Assembly (NCBI GenBank): GCA_041612005.1
Contig: JBFILW010000001.1
Location: 1-47,276 of the forward strand
Length of the DNA stretch: 47,276 bases
Source of the DNA: Gemmatimonadota bacterium
Lineage (GTDB): Bacteria > Gemmatimonadota > Gemmatimonadetes > Palauibacterales > Palauibacteraceae
Reading direction: 5' to 3'
The translations under genes were made by a program, and so were the position numbers. Positions 5,896 through 45,925 of the stretch are shown here, piece by piece; the stretch's first letter is position 1; each line of letters starts with the position of its first letter. The notes beneath the pieces were generated by a model. That model had not been told where the DNA came from and ran no database searches. It saw only the letters and a program-made list of their open reading frames with translations.

Positions 5896-5958
5896 GGATT
5901 CGCTCCGCTTGGGTGGAGTTTGCGCCTTTGCGGGCGCTGAATCAGCGACCCGCCAGGG

Positions 5959-7254
5959 TCAGAGGACCATGACGAGCGGATTCTCCAGCATCGCCTTGAA
6001 TGTCTCCAGGAAGCGCGCGCCCACCGCGCCGTCGATCACCCGGTGATCGCACGACATGGTGACGCGCATTCGCTTCTGAGCTTTGATCTCCCCCTCGACG
6101 ACGACGGCTTTCTCCTCGGTGCGCCCGACGGCGAGGATTGCCGCTTCGGGCGGATTGATGACCGCCGTGAACTCATCGATGTCGAACATTCCGAGATTGC
6201 TGATCGTGAAGGTGGCACCCATGTACTCTTCCGGCATGAGTCGGCGGTTGCGGGCGCGCTCGATCAGATCCCGCGACTCGACCGAGATCGTCTCCAGACC
6301 CTTCCGGTCCACGGCCCGGAGCACAGGCGTGATCAATCCGTCTTCGAGCGCCACCGCCATCCCCAGATCCACGCGGCCGTGGCGACGGATCGCGGCATCC
6401 TCCCAGGAGGCATTCACCTCCGGATGGCGCACGAGCGCTTCCGCGGCGGCTTTGAGCAGCAGGTCGTTGACTCCGATCTTTCCAGCTTCGAGTCCCGCGT
6501 TCAGTTCTGCCCGCATCGCGAGGGCGCGACCCATATCGATCTCGGTGGTGAGGAAGAAGTGAGGAACGGGACCGATGGACTCAACGAGGCGGCGGGCGAT
6601 CGTCTTCCGCATCTGGCTGTGCTCGATCGCTTGCTCCACTAGCCTCGGGGCGCCGGAAGTGGCCGGAGTCGGAAGAGGCGCAGTTGTGGTTCCAGCCCCT
6701 GGCGCCGCCGCGGGCGCGGCGCCAGCCCGCAGCGCGTCCTCTACGTCGCGCTTCACGATCCGACCCGCCGGGCCGGAGCCGGGAATCGCCGCCAGCTCGA
6801 TCCCGGCCTGTTGGGCCATGCGGCGCGCCACGGGAGAGGCCCTCAGCCGTCCGTCGCCGTCGGCCGCGATCGGCTGGCTGGCGATAGGCTGCGGGGCAGG
6901 TTTCGGAGGCGCGGCCACCGCGGCGGGAGGCGGCTCGGCGGTCGGCGCAGCGGTGGATCCAGCCGAGGCGGCGGCCTCCGCGCGTGCTTTCGCCAGCAGG
7001 GCGTCGATGTCCTCGCCGGGATCCGCAATCACACCGATCAGCGTTCCCACCGGCGCCGTGGTGCCGGCCGGAACAAGGATCGCCCTCAGAACGCCGCCGC
7101 CCATCGCCTCCACATCCATGTTGGCCTTGTCGGTCTCGATCTCGGCCAGAATGTCACCCGCTCGGACTTCGGCGCCCTCCTCGACTTTCCATTCGATCAG
7201 CTTGCCCTCTTCCATCGTCGGGCTCAGCTGAGCCATTACCACCTTCGTCGCCAT
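5959..7254 (-). CDS. pdhC: dihydrolipoamide acetyltransferase (E2), single lipoyl domain
   Basis: 431 aa. Lipoyl-lysine motif EIETDKANMDVEA, an Ala/Pro linker, an E3-binding segment, and catalytic DHRVIDGA near the C-terminus. Confidence 0.9.
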   Translation of the reverse strand: MATKVVMAQLSPTMEEGKLIEWKVEEGAEVRAGDILAEIETDKANMDVEAMGGGVLRAILVPAGTTAPVGTLIGVIADPGEDIDALLAKARAEAAASAGSTAAPTAEPPPAAVAAPPKPAPQPIASQPIAADGDGRLRASPVARRMAQQAGIELAAIPGSGPAGRIVKRDVEDALRAGAAPAAAPGAGTTTAPLPTPATSGAPRLVEQAIEHSQMRKTIARRLVESIGPVPHFFLTTEIDMGRALAMRAELNAGLEAGKIGVNDLLLKAAAEALVRHPEVNASWEDAAIRRHGRVDLGMAVALEDGLITPVLRAVDRKGLETISVESRDLIERARNRRLMPEEYMGATFTISNLGMFDIDEFTAVINPPEAAILAVGRTEEKAVVVEGEIKAQKRMRVTMSCDHRVIDGAVGARFLETFKAMLENPLVMVL

Positions 7255-7262
7255 CGGCCAGC

Positions 7263-8261
7263 TTACTCCACCACCGAATGGTTTCGGTAGCAGACGTGCC
7301 TGACCGCGTCGACGACGAACTCGGGCTGTGGAAAGACCAGCTTCTCGAGGTTGCGGGCATACGGCATTGGGACGTCGAGACCTGACACTCGCGCAATCGG
7401 GGCATCCAGGTAATCGAACGCCTCGCGCTGGATGTCATCGACCACCTGGGCACCGACGGCGGCGAACGGGGTGGCTTCCTCGACTACGACGACCCTATTC
7501 GTCTTGCGCACGGAATCGAGCACCGTGTCCACATCCAGCGGTCGGATTGTACGGAGATCGATCACTTCGACTTCGATTCCGTCTTCTACAGCCAGTGTCT
7601 CGGCCGCGCTGATCGAGGTGTGCACCATCTTCGAGTAGGTGACGATGGTGACGTCGTCTCCGGCACGCGCTACATCCGCGACCCCGATCGGCGTCACGTG
7701 ATCACCGTCAGGCACCTCACCCTTCATGTTGTACAGCCGCTCGCCTTCCACGAAGATCACCGGATCGTTGTCCCGGATCGCGCTCTTGAGCAGGCCCTTG
7801 GCATCGGCCGGCGTGGCCGGCGAGCAGACCTTGAGCCCGGGCACGTTGGCGTACCACTGCTCGGGCGCCTGCGAGTGCTGTGCCGCCAGCTGGAGCGCCG
7901 CGCCGCCCGGTCCGCGAAATACGATCGGGATGTTGAACTGCCCCCCGGACATCTCGTAGAGCTTGGCGGCGTGATTGACGATCTGATCGAAGGCCAGGTG
8001 GGCGAAGTTCCACGTCATGATCTCGACCACGGGGCGAAGTCCCACCATTGCCGCGCCCACGCCCATACCCGAGAATCCGTGCTCGGCGATCGGCGTGTCG
8101 CGCACTCTCCACTCACCGAAGTCCTCCAGGAGTCCCTTCGACACCTTGTATGCGCCGTCGTAGACGCCGACCTCCTCTCCGATGAGAAAGACGCGATCGT
8201 CCCGGTCCATTTCCTCGCGCAGCGCCTGGTTGAGCGCCTCGCGGTAGGTGATCACCGCCAT
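7263..8261 (-). CDS. pdhB: pyruvate dehydrogenase E1 beta subunit
   Basis: 332 aa. Transketolase-like pyrimidine-binding and C-terminal domains (ITYREALNQALREEM..., RVRDTPIAE). Confidence 0.9.
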   Translation of the reverse strand: MAVITYREALNQALREEMDRDDRVFLIGEEVGVYDGAYKVSKGLLEDFGEWRVRDTPIAEHGFSGMGVGAAMVGLRPVVEIMTWNFAHLAFDQIVNHAAKLYEMSGGQFNIPIVFRGPGGAALQLAAQHSQAPEQWYANVPGLKVCSPATPADAKGLLKSAIRDNDPVIFVEGERLYNMKGEVPDGDHVTPIGVADVARAGDDVTIVTYSKMVHTSISAAETLAVEDGIEVEVIDLRTIRPLDVDTVLDSVRKTNRVVVVEEATPFAAVGAQVVDDIQREAFDYLDAPIARVSGLDVPMPYARNLEKLVFPQPEFVVDAVRHVCYRNHSVVE

Positions 8262-9313
8262 GCGTCTCTCCGGTCGATTCCGTTTCGGTATTCGTCCGCA
8301 TAGACGAAATCGTACATCTCCGACGCGTCCGGGAGCGGGCTGTTGTCAGCGAATTCGGCCGCCGCTTCCGCTGTGTCGATCGCCGCCTGATCGATTTCGT
8401 CGTACTCCTCTGCACTCAGGACGCCGGCATCGATTAGGCGCCGCCGAAACGAGATGATCGGGTCGTTCTCGCGCTCGGCCTCGACTTCCTCTCGCGTCCG
8501 GTAGACGCCATGCGAGGGATCAGCGATCGAATGACCGACGTAGCGGTAGGTGTTGACCTCCAGGAACGTGGGTTCCTTCTTGTCGCGGGCAATTGCGACC
8601 GCTCGCTCCATGGCGTCACGGACCGCCATCACGTCCATGCCGTCCACCTGTTCCGAGTGCATCCCGTCGTACGTACATGCGCGCTGCACGATGCGCTCGG
8701 CGGCGGTGACACGATCGATCGCCGTTCCCATGCCATACATGTTGTTCTCGCACAAGTACACTACGGGCAGCTTCCAACGGGCGGCCATGTTGAACGACTC
8801 GTGGAAAGCGCCGATGTTGACCGCCGCTTCGCCGAACGTGCACAGGCAGACCTGATCCCCGTCACGATACCGGATGGCGTAACCGACGCCGGCGGCGATC
8901 GGAAGGTGGCTTCCGACGATGCCGTGGCCGCCGAGGAAGTTGAGGTCTTTCGCGAACAGGTGCATGGAGCCGCCGTGACCGCCCGACACTCCATCCGCCC
9001 GCCCGTACAACTCTGCCATCACGCGTCCCGGGTCCATGCCCCGAATCAGCGCGTGCGCGTGTGAACGGTACGAGGCGATCATGTAGTCGTCGTCGCGGAG
9101 GGCGCTGATCGCGCCCACGGCAACCGCCTCCTGGCCGATGTAGAGATGGCAGAAGCCGCCGATCTTGCCCATCTGGTAGGACTCGGCTGCCTTCTCCTCG
9201 AAGCGCCGCGCGACCTCCATCTCGCGCAGGAGCTCTTTCAGCTCAGCGTCCGATAGGCCGAGAAATTGGTTTTCGTCGCCCACTTCCGTGACCTCCCGCT
9301 CGCTCGTCGCCAT
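8252..9313 (-). CDS. pdhA: pyruvate dehydrogenase E1 alpha subunit (TPP-binding)
   Basis: Track ORF 8252-9430 trimmed to ATG 9313-9311 (MATSEREV...), which overlaps the lipA stop by 1 nt (TAATG). Family motifs: GFCHLYIGQEA and the TPP motif GEAAVNIGAFHESFNMA...ENNMYGMGT. Confidence 0.88.
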   Translation of the reverse strand: MATSEREVTEVGDENQFLGLSDAELKELLREMEVARRFEEKAAESYQMGKIGGFCHLYIGQEAVAVGAISALRDDDYMIASYRSHAHALIRGMDPGRVMAELYGRADGVSGGHGGSMHLFAKDLNFLGGHGIVGSHLPIAAGVGYAIRYRDGDQVCLCTFGEAAVNIGAFHESFNMAARWKLPVVYLCENNMYGMGTAIDRVTAAERIVQRACTYDGMHSEQVDGMDVMAVRDAMERAVAIARDKKEPTFLEVNTYRYVGHSIADPSHGVYRTREEVEAERENDPIISFRRRLIDAGVLSAEEYDEIDQAAIDTAEAAAEFADNSPLPDASEMYDFVYADEYRNGIDRRDAWR

Positions 9314-10266
9314 TACACCGCCTCGGCGGCGCCCAGCTCGAGTACCTGCTCGCGGGCGTGGTAACTGCTGCGGACGAGGGGACCGCTCTCCACGTGGCGA
9401 AAGCCGATCCGCTCCCCGTAGCGCTTCCACTCGTCAAACTCCTCGGGGGACACGTACCGGTCAATCGGCAGGTGGTCGAGGGAAGGCCTCAGATACTGCC
9501 CGATGGTAAGGATGTGAACACCGGCGGCACGGGCGTCGTGCATGAACTCACGGACGTCGTCCGCCTGCTCTCCCAGGCCCAGCATGATACCGGTCTTGAT
9601 GAGCACTTCCGCGTCGAGCTCCCCGCCCAGCCGGAGCACGTCGAGCGATCGCTTGTAGCGCCCCCCAGGGCGCGCGGTGCGGTGGAGCCGCCGGACGGTC
9701 TCCATGTTGTGGTTGAAGATGTCCGGCCTCGCCTCGATCACCGTGGCAACCGCCTCCACATCGCCACGAAAGTCGGGGGTTAGCACCTCGATTGAGCAGT
9801 CTGGCCGACGGTTGCGCACCTCGGTGATCGTGTCGGCGAAGATCTTCGCCCCTCCATCCGGGAGGTCGTCGCGGTCGACGGAGGTGATCACGACATGTGA
9901 GAGGGCGAGCTTCTCGATCGCCTCAGCGACCCGGCGCGGCTCGTCTTCATCCAGCTCCTCCGGGCGGCCGTGGGCGATCGCGCAGTAGGGGCAGTTGCGG
10001 GTACAGACGTCCCCCATGATCAGAAAGGTGGCCGTGCCGGAGTCCCAGCATTCGCCGATGTTGGGACAGTGTGCTTCCTCGCACACGGAGTGGAGGCCCA
10101 TTTCTCGCATCAACACCTTCAGGCGGCGGTAGTTGCCGCCGCCCGGCGCACGCACCTTGAGCCAGCGCGGCTTCCGGTCTGGCCACGGAGTGGCTGTCGA
10201 ACCGCACGCGCCGTTCACTGGCGTCGGTTGCCCGTTCGAGTGCAGGATCGTGAGTTGTCGCATCAT
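9313..10266 (-). CDS. lipA: lipoyl synthase (radical SAM)
   Basis: 317 aa. CEEAHCPNIGEC auxiliary-cluster motif and CTRNCPYC radical-SAM motif. Confidence 0.92.
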   Translation of the reverse strand: MMRQLTILHSNGQPTPVNGACGSTATPWPDRKPRWLKVRAPGGGNYRRLKVLMREMGLHSVCEEAHCPNIGECWDSGTATFLIMGDVCTRNCPYCAIAHGRPEELDEDEPRRVAEAIEKLALSHVVITSVDRDDLPDGGAKIFADTITEVRNRRPDCSIEVLTPDFRGDVEAVATVIEARPDIFNHNMETVRRLHRTARPGGRYKRSLDVLRLGGELDAEVLIKTGIMLGLGEQADDVREFMHDARAAGVHILTIGQYLRPSLDHLPIDRYVSPEEFDEWKRYGERIGFRHVESGPLVRSSYHAREQVLELGAAEAV

Positions 10267-10478
10267 CCTAGCAGGTCGCTGAAGAACCCCGGGAGTGCCG
10301 CAAACCGGTCTGGCCGCAAGCTTTAAAACATACCGGGTGCTTCATCGCGAGTCCATAACGCGGGGCCCGCAATCTCGTTGCCGGCGACGAAGGGCAGGCT
10401 TATCTTTTGCACTCGTCTACACTTGAAGTTCTCTGGCACACAGGAACACAGAGCACAGCGAGGGAGTAACGATCCCAT

Positions 10479-10727
10479 ATGCCGTACATCATCGCGCAAC
10501 CCTGCATCGACACCAAGGACGCATCTTGCGTGGACGTGTGTCCTGTTGACTGCATTTACGAGGGCGAGGACCAGTACTACATCCATCCGGAGGAGTGCAT
10601 CGACTGCGGGGCTTGCGTGCCTGAGTGCCCGGTAGAGGCGATTTTCCCGGACGACGAAGTGCCGGATGCTTGGAAAGAGTACATTGCCAAGAACTACGAG
10701 CGCTTCGAAGTGCCCCTCCCCTCCTGA
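10479..10727 (+). CDS. fdxA: 7Fe-type ferredoxin (3Fe-4S + 4Fe-4S)
   Basis: 82 aa. [26 protein letters not shown] and [12 protein letters not shown] cysteine motifs. Confidence 0.85.
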
Positions 10728-10750
10728 GCCAGCGGCGGTCGGAGGAGCTG

Positions 10751-11008
10751 TTGGAACGAATCATCGACATCGACGGCTCGGAATGGTGCGTGCGCGCGGT
10801 GGGCGTCGACGCGAGGCACGAGGGCGCCGACCTCTGGCACCTGGCCCGCGTTCGTTTCGAGCCCCGAGGAGCGCTCGGCGCGGCCCGCGAGACATGGCTG
10901 CGGATGGAGGAAGACGTGCCGGCTATCGACGTCCTGGACCAGTACTTAGACGCGCAGCTGCTGGAGGCCTACCTGATCGCGGAGGAAGTGTTGGAGGAGG
11001 GGCCATAG
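10751..11008 (+). CDS. hypothetical acidic small protein (start uncertain)
   Basis: This is the 3' portion of track ORF 10625-11008 that lies beyond the ferredoxin stop. A TTG at 10751 follows GGAGGAG (10741-10747), but the spacer is only 3 nt. A GTG at 10790 is the alternative start. No recognisable motifs. Confidence 0.3.
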   Translation: MERIIDIDGSEWCVRAVGVDARHEGADLWHLARVRFEPRGALGAARETWLRMEEDVPAIDVLDQYLDAQLLEAYLIAEEVLEEGP

Positions 11009-11159
11009 GCGGGAGGGACAGGCGGTTCCGGTGGATAACATCGGACTTTCCCACGCCTGGACCGGGCGGCTCTCCGGTTTTCCACACTTGAAGCCCGAAT
11101 AAAAACCGTATACCTGACGGACTTCACGGCAATCTGAGCACGCGAGAGGACATAGAGAC

Positions 11160-12413
11160 ATGCATAGGAATTCAGGACTCGGGGGTGGGGCCGGACTAAC
11201 TCTAACAGCGTTCATGGCGCTGATCGCGGGAGCCCTTGCGGTGCCGCCGGGCGCAACGGCTCAGGAACGCGATGCCGCAGCTCTGGCGGCGCCGGAGCTT
11301 CCCTTCGGCAGCACCGCCTTCGTCTCGGTCGAGGACAACGGATCGGAGGACTACTTCGAGGTGGTGGTCGGTCCGGTCGCGCTCCCCGAAGGTGGGGCGC
11401 ATGTGCGCCTGCCGATCCAGATGATCGACATCCCCGTGGACGGCTGGTTGCACGGATTCGAGATCGTCATGACGGACGGCGAGGGCAACGAACTTCCGTC
11501 CCGTCTGCTCCACCACATCAATTTCATCGATCCCAACCACCGCGAGCTCTTCGCTTCGATCCCCCGGCGGATCATGGCGGCCGGACAGGAGACGAGCAGC
11601 GAATCCATGCCCTGGTTTCTCGGCTACCCGGTGGACGCGGACCAGCCGATCATCGTGAGCGCCATGTTCGGCAACGAGTTTGCCGCCGACTACCCGGAGG
11701 TCTACGCCCGGGTGCGCTTCGACTACAGTCAGGAGGGTGAAGGCCTGTTCGATCCATGGTTCGACGTCTACCCGTTCTACATGGATGTGATGGGACCCGT
11801 CGGGCTGAAGGACTTCCCCCTGCCTCCCGGCAAATCGAAGCAGTCATGGGAGGGCGCTCCGGCGGTCGACGGAAGAATGCTGGCCGTGGGCGGGCACGTG
11901 CACGATTACGCGGACGAGATCCGCCTGGAGGACGTGACGACCGGCAAAGTCGTGTGGCGGGCGGAACCAATCGTCAGCGAGAGCGGACAGACAGTCGGAT
12001 TGCCCGTTTCCAAGATGTGGTGGAAGCTTGGCGTCAAGCTGCAGGCGGACCACACGTACCGGATCGTGGTCGAGTACACGAACCCGACCGGCGAGACGAT
12101 CGCCGGTGGCGGGATGGGCGCGATCGGCGGCGTCGCGTGGGTCTCACGCAAAACCGAATGGCCGGCTCTGGACAAAACGAATGCGGAATACGTAGCGGAT
12201 CTCACCAACACGCTCGAGGCGCCGGTGAAGCTGGCGCATGGGCACGGGCACGGCGGAGATGACGCGACAATGAAGATGGACGGGATGGACATGGGCGAGC
12301 CCTTGGGTGCGGCAGAGACCGCCGCCGATGAACACGGTGATCATAGCGAGCACATGAGCCCGGCCAGCGATAAGGCCGAGACGTCCAGCGCGCACGAGCA
12401 CTCGAGCTCGTAG
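11160..12413 (+). CDS. secreted protein with His/Met/Asp-rich C-terminal tail; possible copper-binding beta-sandwich protein
   Basis: 417 aa. Signal-like N-terminus LTAFMALIAGALAVPPGATAQE. Internal LLHHINF and GGHVHDY motifs. Tail: KLAHGHGHGGDDATMKMDGMDMGE...DEHGDHSEHM...SAHEHSSS. Confidence 0.7.
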   Translation: MHRNSGLGGGAGLTLTAFMALIAGALAVPPGATAQERDAAALAAPELPFGSTAFVSVEDNGSEDYFEVVVGPVALPEGGAHVRLPIQMIDIPVDGWLHGFEIVMTDGEGNELPSRLLHHINFIDPNHRELFASIPRRIMAAGQETSSESMPWFLGYPVDADQPIIVSAMFGNEFAADYPEVYARVRFDYSQEGEGLFDPWFDVYPFYMDVMGPVGLKDFPLPPGKSKQSWEGAPAVDGRMLAVGGHVHDYADEIRLEDVTTGKVVWRAEPIVSESGQTVGLPVSKMWWKLGVKLQADHTYRIVVEYTNPTGETIAGGGMGAIGGVAWVSRKTEWPALDKTNAEYVADLTNTLEAPVKLAHGHGHGGDDATMKMDGMDMGEPLGAAETAADEHGDHSEHMSPASDKAETSSAHEHSSS

Positions 12414-33758: not shown

Positions 33759-35750
33759 TCAGATCAGCTCGGCATCGGCGACGATCTCGACCATGCTCGG
33801 CCCTTCGAACTCGAGCGCGTTGGTGAGCGCTTCATCGAGCTCGGTGGCATCCGTCACCCGAATTCCGTACGCGCCGCAGACTTCCGCATACTTCGAGAAG
33901 TCCGGATTGTGCAGCGATGTCTGCCACACGTCCCAGTTTCCGGCCCGCTGCTCCTTGGAGATCTTGCCCAGCTCGCTGTTGTTGATGAGAACGAGCGTGA
34001 TGTTCATCCGGTATTTCACCGCCGTAGTCAGCTCGCCCATGTACTGGCCGAACCCACCGTCGCCCGCGACAGCGATGACCGGACGGCCCGCGAAGCGGGG
34101 GTCTTCCTCCTGCGTCGCGGCCCAGGCTCCCATGGCGGCCGGATAGGCGAAGCCGATCGAGCCCAGGTAGCCAGACATCAGGACCGCCTGCCGGCGGCAT
34201 TCGAAATAGCGGCCGAACGAGTACGTGTTGTTCCCGACATCAACCGCGATGATCGCGTCCTCCGGCACACGGCGGTTCATGGCCGCGAAGACTGCCGCCG
34301 AGTGAACTCCGCGCCCCCGGTGCTCCTCCTCGCGCCGAACCTTCTCTGCACGCCAGATCGCCCAGCGCTCCGCGATCTCCGGACGCTGATCGACCATCTC
34401 GGTGCCTTCCAGCTCGCGTTTGAGAACCTCGACTGTCGCCCCGATCTCGCCCCACACCGGCACCTGCACCGAGTGAAACTTGCCGAGGATCATCGGATCG
34501 TAGTCGACCTGAACGATCGGGCGCTTGGGGGTGATCCCGGTGTGGTTCGAGAAGCTGGCGCCGAGCACGAGAAGGCTGTCGGACTCATTCATGAAGTAGC
34601 TGGCGATCGGGGTGCCACTGCGGCCCAGAACGCCGCAGCCCAGCGGATGGTCGTCGGAAATCAGTCCCTTGCCCTTGAAGGTGGTCAGGACCGGACTGTT
34701 CAGCATCTCCGCCAGTTCGACGATGGCGGGCATGTGGAACCGCGCTCCGTGTCCGACGATGATCACTGGGCGCTCCGACCCCCCGATCAGCGCCACTGCC
34801 TCTTCCATCGTCTCTCGCGCGGGCGTGATCTCGCGGTTTGTGACCCGCCCCTCCGGATGGCCCGATCTCGCGCCCTCGGGCGCGTCGAGGTTCTGCACCT
34901 CGTCCGGGAAGATGAGGTGAGAGACTCCGCGATTGAGGATGGCGCTCTTCAAGGCGAGGTTTATCAGTTCGGCGTGCCGACTGGTGGGAAGGACCAGCTG
35001 TGTCCACTGGGCCACTTTGCCGTACGCGGCCTGCAGGTCGATCTCCTGAAATGCTCCCGGACCCAGCACCTGCGTATCCACCTGGCCGGTGAGCGCGAGT
35101 ACGGGCGAGCGATCAACGTTGGCGTCCCAGAGGCCGGTCAGCAGGTTCGTGGCGCCGGGACCGGCGATCGCCAGGCAGGCGGCTGGACGCCCCGTGAGCT
35201 TCCCGTACGCCGATGCGGCAAACGAGGCTGCGCCTTCGTGCCGAATTCCGTAATAGGTCATCCTGCCGGACTCGGTTTGACGCCGGATGGCGTCGGCCAG
35301 ACCCAGATTGGAATGCCCGACCATCCCCCACACGTGTCGGATTCCCCAGTTGGCCATCGTGTCGGCCATGACGTCCGAGACGGTGCTTGCGTGAGGCGCC
35401 TCCTCTTCGAACCCGACATAGATCCCGTCTTCTCGGACGTCGACGGCGTAAGTAGAGACCCCGTCGTCGAATCCGGGCGCCTTTCCCGTCAGGGGATCGT
35501 AATCCCAGCCGTGCCAGGGACAGCGCAGGAGGCCGTTCTCGATCGAGCCCTCACCGAGGGGCCCGCCCTGATGCGGACACCGGTTGTCCAGCGCGCCGTA
35601 CCGCCCCTTGAAGTGCGTCATGCACACCGTCTGGTGCGCACAGGTGACGGGCTTGACTCGTCCATCCGGAAGCTCGTCGGGCTCCAACACCTTGAACCAC
35701 TGGATCCCCACTCCCGCGGCGTTGCCTGAGCCGTGAGTCGGGTCATTCAT
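33759..35750 (-). CDS. Rieske [2Fe-2S] domain fused to a TPP-dependent enzyme (pyruvate oxidase/acetolactate synthase family)
   Basis: Track ORF trimmed to ATG 35750, with AGGAGAG upstream. Rieske motifs CPHQGGPL and CPWHGWDY lie within residues 58-80. They are followed by TPP N-, central and C-terminal domains (GIRHEGAASFAASAY, GYLGSIGFAYPAAMG, AGDGGFGQYMGEL...NNSELG). Confidence 0.85.
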   Translation of the reverse strand: MNDPTHGSGNAAGVGIQWFKVLEPDELPDGRVKPVTCAHQTVCMTHFKGRYGALDNRCPHQGGPLGEGSIENGLLRCPWHGWDYDPLTGKAPGFDDGVSTYAVDVREDGIYVGFEEEAPHASTVSDVMADTMANWGIRHVWGMVGHSNLGLADAIRRQTESGRMTYYGIRHEGAASFAASAYGKLTGRPAACLAIAGPGATNLLTGLWDANVDRSPVLALTGQVDTQVLGPGAFQEIDLQAAYGKVAQWTQLVLPTSRHAELINLALKSAILNRGVSHLIFPDEVQNLDAPEGARSGHPEGRVTNREITPARETMEEAVALIGGSERPVIIVGHGARFHMPAIVELAEMLNSPVLTTFKGKGLISDDHPLGCGVLGRSGTPIASYFMNESDSLLVLGASFSNHTGITPKRPIVQVDYDPMILGKFHSVQVPVWGEIGATVEVLKRELEGTEMVDQRPEIAERWAIWRAEKVRREEEHRGRGVHSAAVFAAMNRRVPEDAIIAVDVGNNTYSFGRYFECRRQAVLMSGYLGSIGFAYPAAMGAWAATQEEDPRFAGRPVIAVAGDGGFGQYMGELTTAVKYRMNITLVLINNSELGKISKEQRAGNWDVWQTSLHNPDFSKYAEVCGAYGIRVTDATELDEALTNALEFEGPSMVEIVADAELI

Positions 35751-35859
35751 GGACGGTCTCTCCTGAGGGGGAGCGAAGATGCCGACCGCGAGGCACTCGC
35801 GATCGCTCGCGAGAGACGAATGTAGCGGAATGTGGAAGGTGGGAAAGCCGGGTCTGACG

Positions 35860-36816
35860 TTACATGCCGCCGACTGTTCGGAGGAAGTCCACCACGATCT
35901 CGCTGGCCCTGACCGGGCTGCCCGGATCGAGGGCGCCGAACCACTTGTGCCCGCCTCCCTCGACGACGTCGATCTGTACTTGCGTGCCATCGGCACAGCG
36001 ATCGTACAAGCTTCGACGAATCCGAATGGACTGGGTGCTGGGATTCACCGCCGGGAAGGTCACGTTCGCTTCGCCCCGGCATTCGTTCAGCTGCGCGAGC
36101 ACGCTGGCCGCCTGATCGACCGAGAGAATGCCTTCGCCCCCGCCCGCCGGCACGCTGTTGTCTTGATCACCATGCATGAGCAGCACGGGTATCGGGGCGG
36201 GAGCCAGGCGACCGGGCAGGGTGCACACTGTGCCGACCGCCGTCGCCATTGTCGCCCCGACCGTGGCGATCGCCCTGACCGGCGTATCGATCTGACAAGC
36301 CATGAACTGGATGAAGAATCCACCCCGCGAGAAGCCGGTCGCGAACGCCGCTTCGGGAATGATGGCGTAGCTCTCAGCCAGATTCCGAATCAGCGTTCGC
36401 GTGAAGCCTACATCCTCGACGCCCTGGCGTTCGGCGGGGTTGCCGTTTCGGACCCCGGCCCAGAAGCCGGCGACCGCGTCGGGGTACACAACCGCGAAGT
36501 CGTGCATGTCGGCCAGGGAGTCGAGGCCGGTGGCCAACTGCATGGTCTCGCCGTCCTCGCCAGCTCCGTGGTAGACGATCAGCAGGGGAATCGAGGCGCG
36601 CCGCTCGTGCTCGTAATTCTCGGGCAGATGGACGCGGTAGCGGCGAAGAACGCCGTCGACGGTCAGCGTATCCGCGAAGTCGCGGACGCCATCGAAACTG
36701 GGGAGGTCAGGCAGACGGGGTGCGGTCGGTCCTCCGTCGTCCGCGCAGGCGACGGAAAACGTCGCCATGAGCAGGCACAAGACAACGCTGCTCGTCGGGC
36801 CGATTGAACTCTGCAC
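35860..36816 (-). CDS. PHB-depolymerase/LpqC-type esterase lipoprotein
   Basis: Track ORF trimmed to GTG 36816, with GGGAGG 8 nt upstream. Signal with lipobox FSVAC. IPLLIVYHGAGEDGE, the nucleophile elbow GFSRGG, and LLMHGDQDNSVP. Confidence 0.7.
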   Translation of the reverse strand: MQSSIGPTSSVVLCLLMATFSVACADDGGPTAPRLPDLPSFDGVRDFADTLTVDGVLRRYRVHLPENYEHERRASIPLLIVYHGAGEDGETMQLATGLDSLADMHDFAVVYPDAVAGFWAGVRNGNPAERQGVEDVGFTRTLIRNLAESYAIIPEAAFATGFSRGGFFIQFMACQIDTPVRAIATVGATMATAVGTVCTLPGRLAPAPIPVLLMHGDQDNSVPAGGGEGILSVDQAASVLAQLNECRGEANVTFPAVNPSTQSIRIRRSLYDRCADGTQVQIDVVEGGGHKWFGALDPGSPVRASEIVVDFLRTVGGM

Positions 36817-37040: not shown

Positions 37041-38267
37041 ATGATCGCCATACTCCAGCTCTTGGCCATCCTCGGACTCGGGTACCTGGGCACTCACTAC
37101 TTCGCCGAGCGGATCCGGGCTCGCTTCCACGTGACGACCGGCATCGAGTTTGTCGTTCTCGGCGTCCTCGTGGGACCGCACGTGACCTACGTGGTCACGC
37201 CGGAGGTCCTGTCGCAGTTGGGTCCCGTGATCAGCCTGGCGATTGGTGCGGTAGGCCTCATCCTTGGACTCGAGTGTCGATTCGCCGAGCTCCGGGACAC
37301 GCAGCGCCAGGGTCTGGTCTTGTCCTCCTTTGGTGGAACGAGCACCACGGTCGTCGTGGGAGGCCTGGCCGCCGCATTCCTGTGGTACATGCTCCCGCCA
37401 GCCGCGTTTTGGGTTGCGCTGCCGGCCGGCCTTGCCCTCGGCGCGATTTCTGCCGTCTCGACTCCCGAGCCCGCCGGAACTGTCGACGCCGAGATGGAGG
37501 GCCACACTCGGCTCGCCTCCATTCTTCAGTCATCCGCCAAATTCGATCGCTTGATTGCCACCTTGCTCTTCGGGCTCGTGTTCTGTCTGTTCCATGTCGG
37601 AGAGCCGGCCGGTGTCCGACCGCTTACCGCAACCGAGTGGGTGGTCGTCAGCGTTGGGATCGGCGTCGTGCTCGGAGCGCTCTTCTTCCTGTTCCTCGGC
37701 CGCGAGCAGGACCCCGACCGCCTCCTGCTGGCGCTCATGGGAATCATTCTTTTCTCGAGCGGCGCGGCGTACTACCTCAATCTATCTCCCCTGTTCGTCA
37801 ACCTCGTACTCGGAGCGATGCTGGCGAATACGTCGCGCCATGCGGTTGCCCTGCGAGAAGTGATGGGCTCGATCGAGAGACCCCTCAAAGTCGTCATACT
37901 GCTTCTCGCCGGCGCCTCGTGGAATCTCGGTGCCCTCGTGAGTCCGATCGTGCTCGGTCTCCTCGCCATCTGTCTGCTTGGCCGGCCACTCGGCAAGATC
38001 CTCGGCGGGGCGCTGACATTCCGTTATGGCGAGCGGAGGCCTTACCTGACCCCATGGATAGGGATGGGTACTCTGGCCCACGGCAGCCTCGCCGTGGCGA
38101 TGGCTGTGAACTTCCAGGAAGTCTATTCGGGGGTGGCAGCCGACGGGCTGTTCTCGGCAGTGCTGGTCTCGGTCCTGGTATGGGAGCTCCTCGCACCCGC
38201 CAGGATCCGCCGCGCCCTCATCGATTCGGAGCCGGCGCTTGCGCCCCGGGCGACGACAACCGCCTGA
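37041..38267 (+). CDS. cation/proton antiporter (CPA, Na_H_Exchanger family) membrane protein, no regulatory domain
   Basis: 408 aa and polytopic. GIEFVVLGVLVGPHV and ISLAIGAVGLILGLECRF resemble the conserved TM1 and TM4 regions of CPA2-type exchangers. Confidence 0.8.
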   Translation: MIAILQLLAILGLGYLGTHYFAERIRARFHVTTGIEFVVLGVLVGPHVTYVVTPEVLSQLGPVISLAIGAVGLILGLECRFAELRDTQRQGLVLSSFGGTSTTVVVGGLAAAFLWYMLPPAAFWVALPAGLALGAISAVSTPEPAGTVDAEMEGHTRLASILQSSAKFDRLIATLLFGLVFCLFHVGEPAGVRPLTATEWVVVSVGIGVVLGALFFLFLGREQDPDRLLLALMGIILFSSGAAYYLNLSPLFVNLVLGAMLANTSRHAVALREVMGSIERPLKVVILLLAGASWNLGALVSPIVLGLLAICLLGRPLGKILGGALTFRYGERRPYLTPWIGMGTLAHGSLAVAMAVNFQEVYSGVAADGLFSAVLVSVLVWELLAPARIRRALIDSEPALAPRATTTA

Positions 38268-38305
38268 TCTTGCACAACTCGATTCTGGACGAATAGGAGA
38301 CGTCG

Positions 38306-41300
38306 ATGCGGCGCTTTGTAGTGCTGGCTCTGCTGCTCGGCCTGATGACCCTGTTACAGGCGCTGCAGGCCGTCACCGACGCCCCTTTTCACCCGCTTTC
38401 GCTCGGAACCTTCGGCTTTGTGCTGCTGGCCGCGTACACGCTCGGCGAAGTAGCCGCCAACCTCCGTCTTCCCAAGATCACGGGCTACATCGTCACCGGG
38501 CTCGTGTTTGGTCCGCAGGTCCTGAACATCTTTTCCAGCGCCGTGGAGGCGGACCTCAGGGTGGTCAACGAGCTGGCCATCGGGCTGATCGCCCTGAGCG
38601 CCGGCGCCGAGATGCATCTCGCCGGACTCAAGCGGATTGCGCGGAGTCTGCTCTGGATCGTCGTCATCAAGGGTCTGCTCATTCTGGCAGCCGTCATGGC
38701 GGCCGTGGTCGCGCTCGCCTCCTTCATGCCGTTTCTCTCCGGCCAGCCGATCGGGCTCGTGCTCTCGGTCGGGATGATTCTCGGAGTCTTGGCCATCGGG
38801 ACGTCGCCCGCTGCGACTATCGCCGTGATCAACGAAACCCGGGCGAAGGGACGGCTCGCCGATACCACCCTCGGCGTGGCAGTCGCCAAAGACATCGTGA
38901 TGGTCGTGCTGCTGGCACTGGCGATCGCCCTCGCCCGAACCTTCTCCCCGGACAGTCACGGCTTCGAGATCGGCATCCTCGGCGAGCTCGCGCTCCATCT
39001 GTTCTTGAGCCTCCTGGCGGGCGGCATTCTGGGCGGGCTGATCATCGGCTACATGCGCTACGTTGGCGCCGAGCTCTGGCTGTTCGTCGTCGGCATCATC
39101 TTCGCGATGACCGCGATCGCGCATCAGTTCCACTTGGAGGCACTTCTTGTCTTCATCGTGGCTGGATTCGTCGTTCAGAATATCTCGGACCTCGGAGACG
39201 ACTTCGTTCACCTGGTAGAGAAGCTGGCGCTGCCGATCTATGTGGTGTTCTTCTCGGTGGCGGGAGCCGGACTCGACCTCAGCGCTCTCCAAATGGTCCT
39301 GCTGGTCGTTCTAGCGCTTGTAACGGTGCGCATCGTGGCGATCTTCGTCGGAACGGCCGTGGCGACGCGTATCGCCGGCGAACCCGAACCGATCCGGCGC
39401 AATGCCTGGCTTTCATTCGTTTCGCAGGCGGGCGTGGTGATCGGCCTCTCCATCATCGTCGAGAACAATCTGCCGGGACTCGGTACGGAGATCCGTACGC
39501 TGGTGATGGGCACCGTGGCGATCAATCTCCTCGTCGGACCCGTCCTCTTCAAGTTGGCGCTGTCACGCACCGGTGAGGCCAAGGGCTCGGAGGTTTCGGG
39601 CGAGGCGCTCGGCGCGGTGGAGGGAGACGTCGACGTGATGGACGTCGGGACCCTGCCGCGGGAACTGGCGGAAGTGTCGGCGGCGCTCGAGGACGCGGTC
39701 ACAGAGGCGCTTGGGGATTTGGCGCGGGTGGTCCAGTCAGGGCCGCTCCAGATCGCGGACGACGCCAGGCGTGGGCAGGCTCCCGCCGCAGCCCACACGA
39801 ATGCTGATGTGGCCTGGTCGAGAGATATGACCGCCGCCGTTGATCGGTTTTGGGGCGCTGTGCACGAGGCGGCACTCGCCGTTCCCGTGCAGCTGACTGT
39901 TCCGCTCGAGGCGCGCTGGTTCGACAGCGCCGAGAATGACACCGCGGCCGAACGCTGGATGAAGCGGCTGAGGAGATTTCGGCGAGCTCTGAGGCGCATG
40001 TCCGGCACGGACCCGCGCCTGCGCCGGCGAGTGCTCGCCCGGGATCTGGCCCTCTACCACATCGACAATGCTCTCGCAGAGGATCTGGAGCCGGCATTGA
40101 TCCGTCTGGCCGCTCAGCCCGCCTTCGCGGCGCGCGAAGTGCTGAGGGCGCGCCGGCCGTCTGAGAACGGCTCCGCGGCAGGGGACGGCTCGGCCGACGT
40201 GGAGACCTTCCGAGGAGAGGCGATCGACGTCATGGTGCCCGTTGTCGAGGCGCGGTTTGAGACTCTCCGTCGTGAGCTGGCCGAGATTGGCACGATCGCT
40301 CTTTCTTCCAGAGGCCGCCGACCGTCCCAGCTGCACGAGAACGCGGAACGGATTCGAAGTCGTATCGGCGAGACCATCGTGGAGTGGGATGAGCTGGCGA
40401 AAGCCGTGGTCGAGCACGACCTGCGGCGAGATGCCGTCGACGCTCTGCGAAGAGACCTGAAGGCCGATACGGACTCGTTCGAGACCGAGTTCAGGGTCCG
40501 CTTCGACGAGATGATCGTGCAGCCACTTCAGCGAGCCCGGCACGTCGTGGAAGAGGCGCTCAAGGGGATCGGGTCGATGAACGGGACGGACAACACGGCC
40601 ATCGAGCGCTCGCTGCTCGACTTCAGCGAGTCGCTGTCTCTTGGATTGCGAAGAGAAGCGCTCGCCGGTCTGCGACGAAGCTTGGAGACGCGACCACTCG
40701 TCGCCCTGGTCAACCGGTTCGATGACCAGGTAGAGGAACGTCTGGAGGAGCTGCCCGAGGCCTTCCGGGTCGTTGACCCCGATGACCTGCCCGACCCACT
40801 CAGCCCCCCGCGGTCCTATCCCGAAACTGCTAGCCACGAGTTGCGGCTCATTGCCACCGGCGCCGTCGAGCGGACGCTGCGGCCCACCCTGGCCCGCCTG
40901 AAGGAGCGGAGCGCAGAAGCGGCCGCTGAAGCGGCACGGTCCGTCCAGGAGATACGCGAGAATCTCGAGCTCCGCTTCGACGCCGCGCTGGATGCGGCGA
41001 TGGACGAAAGCCGCAGTGCGACGGAAGCGGGCGCCGAAGAGACCGAATCCAGGAAGTCCCTCCAGATAGCAGCCAACGCGCTCGACAATGCCGCGGCGGC
41101 TCTCGATGCCGCGCACGCAGCGGTCGAAGCGGTCGAGAAAGAGGCCATCCAGGCCGTTCACGGAGACCTCGAGGCGATGATCGACCGCCTCGGTACCCAG
41201 CTCGCGAGCGCCCGGCCTCTGGAGGCCCGGCTGCAGGCAGAGCGCGCCCGAGTCGAGCTCAGGGGAACCGCGGTCCTGAGGCTCGTCGCGGGCCGGATCC

Positions 41301-42220
41301 GGCGCCGAGTGAGGAACTTCCTGGTGCGGATCGGACTCCGCCACCCGGCCCACAAACAGGCCGACGGCGCGCCGAGCGGCGGGCTCGTCCGTCTCAGTCC
41401 GGGCGGGCGCGAGGGGTCGGATCGTGCCGTGCTCTTCCATATTCTGTTCGACGAAACAACCCTGGCCGGAAAGATCTTCGACGCATGTCTGATCCTGACG
41501 ATCCTGGCCAGCATCCTCGTCTTGATGCTCGAATCAGTGGAGCCGATCCGGCTCCAGCACGGTACGACGTTGGCCGTGCTGGAGTGGCTGTTTACGCTGT
41601 TGTTCACCCTGGAGTACGCAGCCAGGCTGTGGGCCGTTGATCGGCCGGCCCGATACGCTCTGAGCTTCTTCGGAATCATCGATTTTCTGGCGGTCATTCC
41701 CTCTTACCTCAGCCTCCTGATCCCGGGGGGACAGTTCGTCATGGTGATCCGGATCCTCCGCGTGGCACGAGCATTCAGGGTCTTGAAGCTGGCCCGGTTC
41801 GTGGGAGAGGCGCAGGTCTTGGTCGAGGCGATGAAGGCGAGTCGATATAAGATCACGGTGTTTCTCGTATACGTTGTGAGCGTCGCCGTTATCGTCGGCT
41901 CCGCCATGTACCTCATCGAGGGTCCGGGAGCGGGCTTCACCAGTATCCCGAGAGGCGTGTACTGGGCCATCGTCACTCTGACTACGGTAGGGTTTGGGGA
42001 CATCACGCCTCTGTCGCCATTGGGGCAGACGCTCGCCGCGATCCTCATGATTCTCGGCTACGGGATCATTGCGGTGCCCACGGGGATCGTGACCGCCGAG
42101 ATCGCTTCGAGACCCACCCGGAGGCCATCGGCCCAGACGTGTGCGAAGTGCGGCCACGAGGAGGAGAATCCAGCGGCGGCCTACTGCCTGGTTTGCGGGG
42201 CCAGCCTCGACCCTCGATAG
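38306..42220 (+). CDS. multidomain fusion: CPA antiporter domain + long helical spacer + 6TM voltage-gated K+ channel + C-terminal zinc ribbon
   Basis: 1304 aa with AGGAGA 6 nt upstream of the ATG. CPA motifs: GYIVTGLVFGPQVLNI, LIALSAGAEMHL, GTSPAATIAVINE. S4 segment VIRILRVARAFRVLKLARF (about 41738-41800). Selectivity filter TTVGFGD (41981-42001). Zinc ribbon CAKC...CLVC (42140-42196). Confidence 0.85.
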   Translation: MRRFVVLALLLGLMTLLQALQAVTDAPFHPLSLGTFGFVLLAAYTLGEVAANLRLPKITGYIVTGLVFGPQVLNIFSSAVEADLRVVNELAIGLIALSAGAEMHLAGLKRIARSLLWIVVIKGLLILAAVMAAVVALASFMPFLSGQPIGLVLSVGMILGVLAIGTSPAATIAVINETRAKGRLADTTLGVAVAKDIVMVVLLALAIALARTFSPDSHGFEIGILGELALHLFLSLLAGGILGGLIIGYMRYVGAELWLFVVGIIFAMTAIAHQFHLEALLVFIVAGFVVQNISDLGDDFVHLVEKLALPIYVVFFSVAGAGLDLSALQMVLLVVLALVTVRIVAIFVGTAVATRIAGEPEPIRRNAWLSFVSQAGVVIGLSIIVENNLPGLGTEIRTLVMGTVAINLLVGPVLFKLALSRTGEAKGSEVSGEALGAVEGDVDVMDVGTLPRELAEVSAALEDAVTEALGDLARVVQSGPLQIADDARRGQAPAAAHTNADVAWSRDMTAAVDRFWGAVHEAALAVPVQLTVPLEARWFDSAENDTAAERWMKRLRRFRRALRRMSGTDPRLRRRVLARDLALYHIDNALAEDLEPALIRLAAQPAFAAREVLRARRPSENGSAAGDGSADVETFRGEAIDVMVPVVEARFETLRRELAEIGTIALSSRGRRPSQLHENAERIRSRIGETIVEWDELAKAVVEHDLRRDAVDALRRDLKADTDSFETEFRVRFDEMIVQPLQRARHVVEEALKGIGSMNGTDNTAIERSLLDFSESLSLGLRREALAGLRRSLETRPLVALVNRFDDQVEERLEELPEAFRVVDPDDLPDPLSPPRSYPETASHELRLIATGAVERTLRPTLARLKERSAEAAAEAARSVQEIRENLELRFDAALDAAMDESRSATEAGAEETESRKSLQIAANALDNAAAALDAAHAAVEAVEKEAIQAVHGDLEAMIDRLGTQLASARPLEARLQAERARVELRGTAVLRLVAGRIRRRVRNFLVRIGLRHPAHKQADGAPSGGLVRLSPGGREGSDRAVLFHILFDETTLAGKIFDACLILTILASILVLMLESVEPIRLQHGTTLAVLEWLFTLLFTLEYAARLWAVDRPARYALSFFGIIDFLAVIPSYLSLLIPGGQFVMVIRILRVARAFRVLKLARFVGEAQVLVEAMKASRYKITVFLVYVVSVAVIVGSAMYLIEGPGAGFTSIPRGVYWAIVTLTTVGFGDITPLSPLGQTLAAILMILGYGIIAVPTGIVTAEIASRPTRRPSAQTCAKCGHEEENPAAAYCLVCGASLDPR

Positions 42221-43519: not shown

Positions 43520-44221
43520 GTGTCGCAAGAGCGGGTTTTGGTCGCAGACGATGAGCCGGACGTTCTAGGCCTCGTCACCTACCAGTTGAGCCGGGAGGGC
43601 TTTCGGGTCGACACCGCCATCAACGGTCGTGCTGCGATCGAGGCGGCGACGGCCGACGTTCCGGATCTGATCGTGCTCGACCTCATGATGCCCGAGCTGG
43701 ACGGGTACGAGACGCTTCGTCTGCTGAGGGACAACCCCAGGACCTCGAAGATTCCGGTCATTCTCCTCACTGCCCGCGACGAAGACGAACAGAGGATACG
43801 GGGCCTCGAGCTCGGGGCGGACGACTATGTCACCAAACCGTTCAACGCGAGGGAGCTGGTCCTCCGTGTACAGGCCGTTCTGCGGCGGACGAGGGCCGAG
43901 CCGGTTGTCTCGAGGCGCATTGTCGGAGTCGGCCCGATCGAGATCGACCAGGACGCGCTGAGGGTAAGCGTCGAGGGGCGCGCGGTGGACCTGACACTTC
44001 TCGAGTACCGTCTGCTCGAGACGCTCGTGGAGCGGCGCGGACGCGTACAATCGCGTCAGCAGCTGCTGGAGGCGGCCTGGGATACGAATGCGAAGATCGA
44101 GACCCGGACCGTGGACATGCACGTGGCGCGGCTGCGGTCCAAGCTCGGAGATGCCGGCGAGATGATCGAAACCGTGCGCGGCGTCGGCTACCGGTGTCGT
44201 GCCGACGGCGGGAACAACTAG
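43520..44221 (+). CDS. phoB: OmpR/PhoB-family response regulator
   Basis: 233 aa with a GTG start. Receiver domain (VLVADDEPD..., DLIVLDLMMPELDG, phospho-acceptor Asp, KP) plus a winged-helix domain (LTLLEYRLLETL..., VDMHVARLRSKL, IETVRGVGYR). The symbol is assigned only from context next to a PhoR-like kinase and a phosphate porin. Confidence 0.85.
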   Translation: MSQERVLVADDEPDVLGLVTYQLSREGFRVDTAINGRAAIEAATADVPDLIVLDLMMPELDGYETLRLLRDNPRTSKIPVILLTARDEDEQRIRGLELGADDYVTKPFNARELVLRVQAVLRRTRAEPVVSRRIVGVGPIEIDQDALRVSVEGRAVDLTLLEYRLLETLVERRGRVQSRQQLLEAAWDTNAKIETRTVDMHVARLRSKLGDAGEMIETVRGVGYRCRADGGNN

Positions 44222-44224
44222 TCG

Positions 44225-45925
44225 ATGAAGTTCAGGACGCGACTGTTCCTCGGCATCCTGGGCGTGCTGCTGGTGGGGCTCGTCGTCCTCGTGTGGCTTG
44301 CGCAAGTGGAGTTGCGCGCCCAGCTCGAGGAGCAATACCGCGATGAGCTGTCGAGAACGGCGGCGTTGGCGGCGGCGGCGCTGCATGATCGCGCGCTCAC
44401 CGACGCCCTCGCGGACTCCCTGGGGGCAGCGAGCGGCCTGAGAGTCTCCTTTATCTCACCGGATGGCGCCGTGATCGGAGACTCGGAGATCGACGAAGCC
44501 GCGCTGCAGAGAGTAGATAGCCATCGCGACCGGCCGGAGGTCGGCGCGGCGCTCGGTGGCAAGACCGGGGTCGCCACCCGGGCAAGCGAGACCGTCTCGC
44601 GCCGTCTTCTCTACGTTGCGGTTCCGCACCCTGCGGGCGTCGTCCGCGTAGCCAGACCGATCGATGACGTGCGGTCGGCCGTGACGCGATCGCGGCGTCT
44701 GCTGCTTGCGGGTAGCGGACTGGCCCTGCTCACGGCTGCCGCGCTCAGCCTGCTGCTCGTCCGGTACCTTCCCCGGCCGTTCGGCCAGGTCCGGGAGACG
44801 GCCCGCGCGATCGCCGGCGGCGACCTTTCAAGACGGGTCCGGGCTCGAGGCAGTGACGATGTCGCAAACCTGGGTCGGGCAGTCGACGAGATGGCCGAGC
44901 AGCTCGAGCGCACTGTCATCGACCTCAGCCGAGAGAAGAGCGATCTGACGGCCCTGTTCGATGGGTTGGAGGATGGCGTCGCCGTGGTCGATGGGGCGAG
45001 CGTGGTCGTGCGCGCTAACCGCGCCTTCGAGCGCTGGGCCGGCCGAACGGGCCTCAAGGGCGTGCGATTCGGGACGCTGTTTCGCGATCCGAGAATCGGC
45101 GAGACGGTTTCGATGGCGACAGAGGGAAAGGCGGGCTCATATGAGATCACTGCCGGAGGTCGGACACTCCTGATGTCTGCGCAACCCTACGGCGGTGGGG
45201 CCGTCGTGCTGATGCGCGATCTGACTCAGCTCCGCCAGCTTGAGGGCGTACGGCGGGATTTCGTGGCCAACGTGTCACACGAGCTCAAGACTCCGCTGAC
45301 AGGGATCCTCGGATTCGCCGAGCCGCTCGCCGAGGGAGACCTCCCGCCGGACCAGACACGCCTCTTCGCCCAGCGCATCGAGGCGAACGCGCGACGCATG
45401 CGAGATCTGCTCAACGACCTGCTGGATCTGGCGCGGGTCGAGTCGGGACACTGGGAGCCGGCGCGCGAGGCCGTGCGGCTGGATCAGATCGCTCGCTCTG
45501 CCTGGTCCGACCTGGAGCCGATTCCGGGGGATCGCGGCGTCCTGCTCAAGGTCGACGAGTCGGCCAGGGTGGCGGTGGACGCGGATCCCGGCTCTCTTCA
45601 CCAAATGCTGCACAATCTGTTCGACAACGCTCTCCGATACTCGCCCGCAGGCAGCGAGATCGAAGTCCACGCATTGCCGGTTGACGGTAACACGCTGGTC
45701 GAGATCCGGGATCAGGGACCCGGGATCGCGCGCCAGCATCGGGAGCGCGTTTTCGAGCGCTTCTATCGGGTTAACGCCGCCCGCGACCGGGACTCGGGGG
45801 GCACCGGGCTCGGCCTCTCGATCGTCAAACACCTGGTCGTGGCGCACGGCGGAAATGTCGGAGTGCGCAGCGAGCTGGGAGAGGGCGCGACGTTCTGGTT
45901 TACGCTTCCGGCATCTTCCGCCTGA
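44225..45925 (+). CDS. phoR: PhoR-like sensor histidine kinase (TM-periplasmic-TM-HAMP-PAS-HisKA-HATPase)
   Basis: 566 aa. H-box [15 protein letters not shown]-box [10 protein letters not shown]-boxes DQGPGI and [10 protein letters not shown]. The symbol is tentative and rests on context. Confidence 0.85.

Follow-up and report, generated by a model that had tools for sequence, protein, structure and literature searches.

Can one bacterial gene encode both the fold of a secondary transporter and an entire voltage-gated K+ channel, and, if so, might the two act together? The question is raised by an open reading frame (ORF) in a 47,276-nucleotide stretch of DNA from a Gemmatimonadota bacterium (assembly GCA_041612005.1, contig JBFILW010000001.1, positions 1 to 47,276 of the forward strand; hereafter the window). 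An earlier note, made from the letters alone, had read this ORF as a cation/proton antiporter (CPA) domain joined through a ~620-residue helical spacer to a voltage-gated K+ (Kv) channel, and had suggested either reciprocal gating of the two or use of one as a sensor for the other. Transporters and channels, CPA exchangers and Kv-type channels among them, are usually separate proteins. We find that the fusion protein is a real and conserved, yet rare, architecture. The earlier interpretation is partly supported overall, and it overlooked a CPA-like partner gene, an AAA+-type parent family and a non-canonical K-D motif at the ion site.

One reading frame, two membrane modules

The ORF is uninterrupted over its 1304 codons and is preceded by a ribosome-binding sequence, as first described:

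38306..42220, + strand: complete fusion ORF of 1304 codons in one uninterrupted frame, ATG start, stop codon included
38295..38300, + strand: Shine-Dalgarno sequence AGGAGA, 5 nucleotides ahead of the ATG, from the sequence

A search for both terminal domains in one protein, which the earlier note had proposed, placed Na_H_Exchanger (PF00999) at aa 45-416 (82.8 bits against a Pfam cut-off of 26.2), within the first 420 or so residues that had been assigned to a CPA domain, and Ion_trans (PF00520) at aa 1056-1267 (114.6 bits against a cut-off of 25), together with Ion_trans_2 (aa 1192-1263), where a complete channel with six transmembrane segments (6TM) had been recognised. Ten further full-length fusions (1299-1314 aa, 55-73% identity across 100% of the query) were recovered from 5.8 billion proteins searched, all of them with PF00999, PF00520 and PF07885, so that the possibility of orthologues always being separate genes, considered in the earlier note, does not hold. 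A survey of phylogenetic distribution, also suggested there, found the gene in about ten genomes when one genome per GTDB species was sampled, nearly all of them labelled Longimicrobiales or Gemmatimonadota and two labelled Acidobacteria.

A missed frameshift or an assembly chimera could in principle have merged two genes, a caveat raised in the earlier note and one for which no supporting evidence was found. This explanation, to which we assign a vanishingly small probability, is excluded. The fusion orthologues were drawn from independent NCBI, ENA, JGI and Logan assemblies, and one of them (L001) sits on a 4.67-Mb Longimicrobiales chromosome from a 76x assembly; recurrence of the same architecture in more than 10 independent assemblies means that it is neither chance nor an assembly chimera. 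Within the window ORF, the G+C content at third codon positions was 0.73-0.87 in every 100-codon segment and that at second positions was the lowest of the three throughout, linker included. This steady profile from end to end, in which the codon-position signal is unbroken, therefore indicates a single coding frame with no hint of a hidden frameshift.

Across the 11 fusions, mean identity to the window protein was 81% for the CPA domain and 80% for the Kv module, compared with 49% for the helical domain, 54% for the zinc-ribbon tail, 27% for the first tether and 21% for the second. Conservation at about 80% in the CPA module and likewise in the Kv module indicates that purifying selection acts on both. 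The predicted topology is self-consistent, with 13 transmembrane (TM) helices and an inside C terminus leading to a cytoplasmic domain, S1 entering from the inside and a cytoplasmic zinc ribbon.

No naturally split intact version of the fusion was seen among orthologues diverged down to 55% identity. Two candidates for a natural split were rejected. The first, a 1117-aa protein without a CPA domain (P0012), comes from the same gene broken by an insertion-sequence (IS) transposase, DDE_Tnp_1; the second (L019), with ORFs of 513 and 832 aa, was read as a frameshift in a metagenome-assembled genome (MAG) at 2.9x coverage. The Kv-type orthologue broken by a DDE_Tnp_1 IS element lies at about 6279..11354 of locus L002/L009, on a 1.38-Mb contig of a Longimicrobiales MAG. 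A scan for promoters and terminators yielded nothing informative, terminator-like matches being no more frequent than in shuffled sequence.

The channel module and its closest counterparts

The C-terminal part of the protein reads as an ordinary bacterial 6TM voltage-gated K+ channel, with the following elements:

41405..42115, + strand: 6TM Kv module (aa 1034-1270), comprising pre-S1 segment GSDRAVLF, S1-S4 sensor, pore and S6 with AVPTG, from Pfam Ion_trans and the match to Kv1.3
41750..41797, + strand: S4 helix with six basic residues, by motif check
41981..42001, + strand: K+ selectivity filter TTVGFGD, by motif check, with the T-x-G-[YF]-G-D signature present
42140..42196, + strand: C-terminal zinc ribbon CxxC-x11-CxxC, as CAKC-GHEEENPAAAY-CLVC

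Every motif that the earlier note quoted was found in its place, including the filter (aa 1226-1232) and an S4 helix (aa 1149-1164, RILRVARAFRVLKLAR) with a basic residue at every third position (R1149, R1152, R1155, R1158, K1161 and R1164). The Kv module matches Kv1.3 best (E=2.4e-23), and also Kv4, Kv1.2 and KvAP (E~3e-13), and its charge-transfer centre, formed by F1100-x-x-E1103 in S2 and D1126 in S3, aligns to that of Kv1.3 and is invariant among the fusions. The six S4 charges, the filter and the AVPTG hinge of S6 are likewise invariant or nearly so, the filter varying only between F and Y at position 1230. The zinc ribbon had been described as CAKC-x13-CLVC; both cysteine pairs stand (aa 1279-1282 and 1294-1297, all four cysteines invariant in 11/11 fusions), although their spacing is 11 residues and not 13.

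A search with aa 1032-1304 returned at least 8000 matches, all with E<=1e-10. The best matches listed are stand-alone ~277-aa proteins annotated as 'voltage-gated potassium channel' (58-65% identity over 99-100% of the module), many of them from Gemmatimonadota. These bacterial Kv–zinc-ribbon channels, relatives of KvAP and MVP, resemble the module over its whole length, pre-S1 helix included, and differ in that the channel here forms the C-terminal third of a 1304-aa protein. Stand-alone channel homologues carry Zn_ribbon_3/DUF7575, and because the ribbon is found in thousands of such ~277-aa homologues it belongs to the channel module.

The earlier note was aware of no characterised example of such a protein. 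This holds for a CPA domain fused to a complete channel, none of which is described in the literature searched, but not for voltage sensing as such, since SLC9C1 couples a CPA exchanger to it. SLC9C1, which its structure paper presents as the one transporter known to be under the control of a voltage-sensing domain (PMC10620092), is the closest characterised system, as it too places a CPA-fold exchanger N-terminal to S4-type machinery in one polypeptide, with a cytoplasmic region between or after. However, it is a eukaryotic, sperm-specific CPA1 Na+/H+ exchanger gated by voltage and cAMP, a dimer with an ND motif, a cyclic nucleotide-binding domain (CNBD) and no pore (PMC10620092, PMC10620091), whereas the fusion protein is bacterial and CPA2-like, with a KD motif, a full K+ pore and no CNBD (Pfam detected no cNMP_binding domain). 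It also has a 560-aa helical domain whose fold matched nothing, and its Kv part implies a tetramer.

The comparison admits an alternative interpretation, namely that the principal role of the Kv module is to sense voltage and thereby turn the CPA transporter on or off via the helical domain, with K+ conduction secondary. An S4-type sensor does gate a CPA exchanger within the same chain in SLC9C1 (PMC10620092, PMC6052114), and the fusion protein offers both six S4 charges and an intact charge-transfer centre. We nevertheless consider this interpretation quite unlikely, because conservation is as high in the pore helix, the TTVGFGD filter and the hinge of S6 as in the sensor, because the module reproduces a common stand-alone channel without modification, and because it is attached not by S4 but by its N terminus, through a variable ~23-aa tether.

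A wider family, a partner gene and the antiporter fold

Most whole-protein relatives of the fusion are 1400-1500 aa long, come from KSB1, Acidobacteriota/Blastocatellia, Rhodothermales and Myxococcota, and are annotated only as 'cation:proton antiporter' or 'KefB'; no description of this AAA-type family was found in the literature searched. These relatives have the same CPA domain (up to about 60% identity), with its TSP/KD/R/Q signature, a homologous helical domain and an upstream partner gene, all of which are found for the window protein as well. They differ in ending in an ORC/Cdc6-like AAA+ P-loop module at about aa 1165-1300, with a resemblance to Clp and Cdc6/ORC ATPases and a probable winged helix after it; in the window protein Pfam found no C-terminal AAA+ module, and the Kv module and zinc ribbon stand in its place. 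Homology to the AAA-type proteins stops near the end of the helical domain (BLASTP to P0015 aligns the query up to aa 1009), and the stand-alone channels align from about aa 1033. Neighbour joining on CPA-domain sequences gathers the Kv-type proteins into a single clade that lies within the AAA-type ones. The simplest history would be that a stand-alone Kv–zinc-ribbon channel took the place of the AAA+ module once, with the junction around aa 1010-1032.

Immediately ahead of the fusion gene lies the partner:

37041..38267, + strand: partner gene for a 408-aa divergent CPA-like membrane protein, ending 38 nucleotides before the fusion gene

Partner homologues lie upstream of the large gene in 10/10 related loci, Kv-type and AAA-type alike (72-78% identity in the former, 28-45% in the latter); the orthologues carry PF00999, and in L007 and L019 the partner's stop codon overlaps the start codon of the large gene. 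An MscS-like channel gene follows directly in 5/5 AAA-type loci, often with overlapping stop and start codons, and trkA-trkH often precede. The Kv-type loci keep the partner and have neither an AAA+ module nor trkAH; an adjacent MscS-like gene is also missing from them, the window and L001 included. Links to K+ uptake and to channels thus recur in this system, and in the Kv-type protein a channel has been incorporated.

The AAA-type operon seen in L023, L025/L026, L027, L028 and L029 consists of the partner, trkA-trkH in some, a ~1500-aa CPA–helical–AAA+ protein with a probable winged helix, and the MscS-like gene, and it spans KSB1, Acidobacteriota, Myxococcota and Rhodothermales. A candidate homologue of the partner by size and divergence, as yet unconfirmed, is Q1D5P4 of Myxococcus xanthus (432 aa, 14 transmembrane segments), which forms its own CPA2 subfamily, TC 2.A.37.6.1 (PMC3924187).

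The N-terminal module is predicted to be a 13-TM NhaA-fold domain, CPA2-like, with these features:

38306..38380, + strand: N-terminal hydrophobic helix (aa 1-25), from hydropathy and an AlphaFold2 (AF2) helix at residues 2-19 followed by a low-confidence loop
38381..39565, + strand: CPA (NhaA-fold) domain with 13 TM (aa 26-420), from Pfam, AF2, Foldseek and hhalign
38888..38893, + strand: K195-D196, at the position of the ND/DD/QD ion-binding motif, from hhalign to KefC Q155/D156
39329..39331, + strand: R342, equivalent to KefC K307 and to CPA motif position 8, from hhalign and conserved in 55/55 family members

The AF2 model of aa 1-440 (predicted local distance difference test score (pLDDT) 83.4; predicted template modelling score (pTM) 0.81) has two discontinuous crossing helices, broken at aa 165-167 (GTSP, within the GTSPAAT motif of aa 165-171) and at aa 372-376 (SQAG), the latter containing Q374, present in 55/55 family members. 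Foldseek matched the model to NapA (E=1.4e-10, target-normalised TM-score 0.75-0.79) and further to MjNhaP1, PaNhaP, NHA2, SOS1, SLC9C1 (E~1e-8) and KefC. The CPA-domain sequence matched no CPA structure in the PDB by phmmer or by the family profile, TIGR00932 scored 34 bits on the fusion protein, below its cut-off of 238.3, and hhalign aligned the domain to Escherichia coli KefC with a probability of 92%. KefC TM1 aligns with aa 33-51 of the fusion protein, and aa 1-25 may be either a signal peptide or an extra TM0 before the 13-TM fold.

KefC and KefB, the glutathione-gated K+/H+ exchangers that combine CPA2 and RCK, likewise have a 13-TM CPA2-type fold and then a cytoplasmic regulatory domain. 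At the site itself, hhalign pairs D196 with KefC D156, the aspartate essential for ion binding, K195 with Q155 and R342 with K307, and sets T166-S167-P168 against the TM5a-b break, so that the TS-type helix break is common to both. The fusion protein differs from KefC and KefB in having KD for QD, a sub-threshold TIGR00932 score and a C-terminal channel, and in lacking the RCK/KTN domains through which CPA2 proteins are commonly regulated; their absence, already remarked on in the earlier note, was borne out by a Pfam scan without a hit.

Helical domain, the proposed K+/H+ circuit and the surrounding locus

Between the two membrane modules lie a large domain and two short connections:

39566..39658, + strand: tether 1 (aa 421-451), acidic and variable, 27% mean identity, pLDDT <50 at model residues 9-29
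39659..41335, + strand: folded cytoplasmic helical domain (aa 452-1010), from AF2 and from BLASTP to AAA-type relatives
41336..41404, + strand: tether 2 (aa 1011-1033), site of the fusion junction, of varying length and sequence, 21% identity, pLDDT <50 at model residues 600-617

The earlier description of a ~620-aa helical spacer was right about the helices; the idea of a passive spacer did not hold. In the AF2 model of aa 417-1060 (pLDDT 85.1, pTM 0.74), the region appears as a folded, family-specific domain of helices up to 84 residues long with a few short strands, and of a fold without a PDB match. Confidence falls below a pLDDT of 50 only at model residues 9-29, 208-215, 600-617 and the cut C-terminal end (634-644), and the stretches 9-29 and 600-617 are the two junction segments. 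Conserved motifs include RRPSxLH (aa 671-677), LAGLRR (aa 786-791) and VVDPxxLPDP (aa 822-831). The linker region gave no Pfam or NCBIfam hit, and Foldseek of its model against the PDB gave no match at E<=1e-3; weak matches to dynamin stalks, ZorA tails, apolipoproteins and designed bundles were discounted as generic helical similarity. When the linker alone was searched with phmmer against 1.84 billion representatives, it returned 6 matches, all from the same family. The large AAA-type protein of L027 (6001..10550) is naturally split in mid-linker: a 763-aa product carries the CPA domain and one half of the helical domain, and a product of 733 aa carries the remainder together with AAA_16. 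The helical domain is therefore divisible between two chains.

On the sequence evidence, we regard the chances as evenly balanced that these modules form a K+/H+ homeostasis complex in which a voltage-gated K+ path is coupled to a CPA pair. A K+ filter takes four Kv modules, and CPA transporters function as dimers. Four chains would accordingly be expected to assemble through the Kv tetramer, gathering four CPA and four helical domains, and each fused CPA domain would dimerise either with the co-translated partner or with another fused domain; the tight linkage of the partner gene suggests CPA–partner heterodimers, the alternative being two homodimers. In the resulting local circuit, K+ would take a voltage-gated, electrophoretic route through the Kv pore, and the CPA pair would swap K+ (or Na+) for H+, so that membrane potential could be turned into controlled H+ and K+ movement for pH, K+ and osmotic homeostasis, and the helical domain would serve in the cytoplasm as a scaffold or a platform for regulation. 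Given the apparent flexibility of both tethers (~30 aa to the CPA domain, ~23 aa to the channel), coupling would come mainly from the fixed 1:1 stoichiometry and proximity, with weak allostery at most, and no rigid gate shared by the CPA and Kv modules would be expected.

Such a circuit would parallel the trkAH genes beside AAA-type relatives as well as the cycle of alkaliphiles, in which the Na+ that cation/H+ antiporters use in pH homeostasis is delivered by Nav channels (PMC4225499). In alkaliphilic Bacillus a voltage-gated channel provides the antiporter's cation (PMC4225499), the logic proposed here; there the two are separate proteins that handle Na+, whereas here the modules are joined and the filter is one for K+.

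Several observations weigh against this circuit, the ion site among them. KefC binds K+ directly through Q155 and D156 (PMC11150392). In the fusion protein, CPA motif position 6 is K195 and not D, N or Q, the residues given for that position in the published motif description (PMC6181914), and no acidic residue was aligned with KefC E337 by hhalign. By the same description the CPA1 signature is also absent, position 5 being V191 (in TTLGVAVAKD) and not Glu, with R342 present at position 8. K195 and D196 are each kept in 54/55 family members. With K195, R342 and no E337-like charge, the site should therefore be more positive than that of any characterised CPA. This predicted positive charge is the main uncertainty over what the CPA domain does, and cation/H+ antiport by it is not assured. 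In addition, the trkAH association is limited to 3/5 AAA-type loci, where the genes lie directly upstream; the partner–fusion heterodimer and the tetrameric stoichiometry are both arrangements that we infer; and any allosteric coupling between the modules is putative, given tethers that are poorly conserved and modelled with low confidence.

Alternatively, the CPA domain and its partner may transport no ions and instead, as a membrane-embedded sensor of ions or pH or as an anchor, control the Kv pore here and the AAA+ and MscS-like components in relatives. RCK domains, which regulate both Kef proteins and K+ channels, offer a parallel. K195 beside the ion-binding Asp, the invariant R342 and the missing E337 equivalent could provide a built-in positive charge, and the C-terminal output module has proved swappable while the CPA and helical domains stayed constant. 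Against this, no part of the wider family is better conserved than the CPA core (about 60% identity between phyla, compared with about 20% for the helical domain), and the site elements of the NhaA fold are kept, namely both helix breaks, D196 and the basic residue at position 8. These conserved elements would fit an active site and a sensor equally well, and we consider a purely sensory CPA pair unlikely.

The tethers bear on two further readings, which differ in how closely they join the modules. At one extreme, the fusion could be functionally neutral, an antiporter-family protein and a Kv channel working independently and joined only to secure co-expression, as the flexible-looking tethers and a Kv module barely altered from stand-alone channels might suggest. 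We think this very unlikely, because the fusion is kept down to 55% identity, its only breaks being an IS insertion and a frameshift in a MAG at 2.9x coverage, and because what the channel displaced was one particular module, at one particular junction, in a family with existing links to genes for channels and K+ uptake.

At the other extreme, the protein could be an obligatorily coupled machine, in which CPA-type dimers of fused domain and partner and a tetrameric Kv pore are mutually controlled through the helical domain as a transduction element of a kind not seen before. Both tethers are variable and of low confidence, which argues against simple rigid coupling. We rate this bolder reading as improbable, on a par with the sensory one. 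If it were true, a secondary-transporter fold and an entire voltage-gated channel would here, for the first time in a natural protein, act as one allosteric unit. The protein would also be the most readily approached member of a widespread system for ion homeostasis (partner, giant CPA protein and channel, with or without TrkAH), in which the K-D site would bring non-canonical chemistry, such as a H+ pathway with a tethered charge, or a sensor.

A compact bacterial CPA fold with a complete Kv pore should be tractable for cryo-electron microscopy and electrophysiology, and could reveal how a carrier and a channel coordinate their activities and in what way dimeric CPA domains fit a channel tetramer. 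The broader multi-phylum family, with its K-D/R ion site, new helical domain and interchangeable C-terminal modules, adds to this interest, none of these features being described in the literature searched. Gemmatimonadota are abundant in soil and sediment, and the physiological pay-off would be a better grasp of their K+ and pH homeostasis.

Elsewhere in the locus, 43520..45925 (+), 1.3 kb downstream of the fusion gene, encodes, judging from the translations only, an OmpR/PhoB-type response regulator and a PhoR-like histidine kinase; this pair is not kept beside the orthologues in L001, L002 or L030. Genes for E2 and E3 of a 2-oxoacid dehydrogenase complex occupy 4486..7254 (-), about 31 kb upstream of the fusion, and those for E1 alpha, E1 beta and E2 of the same complex occupy 1..2448 of L001, 5.5-8 kb upstream of the orthologue; the presence of these genes near both fusions amounts to loose synteny and therefore supports a common lineage. 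A 744-aa ORF at 33759..35996 (-) joins a Rieske [2Fe-2S] domain (aa 98-172) to a complete thiamine-pyrophosphate enzyme with TPP_enzyme_N, M and C domains (aa 204-737), and itself looks like an unusual fusion.

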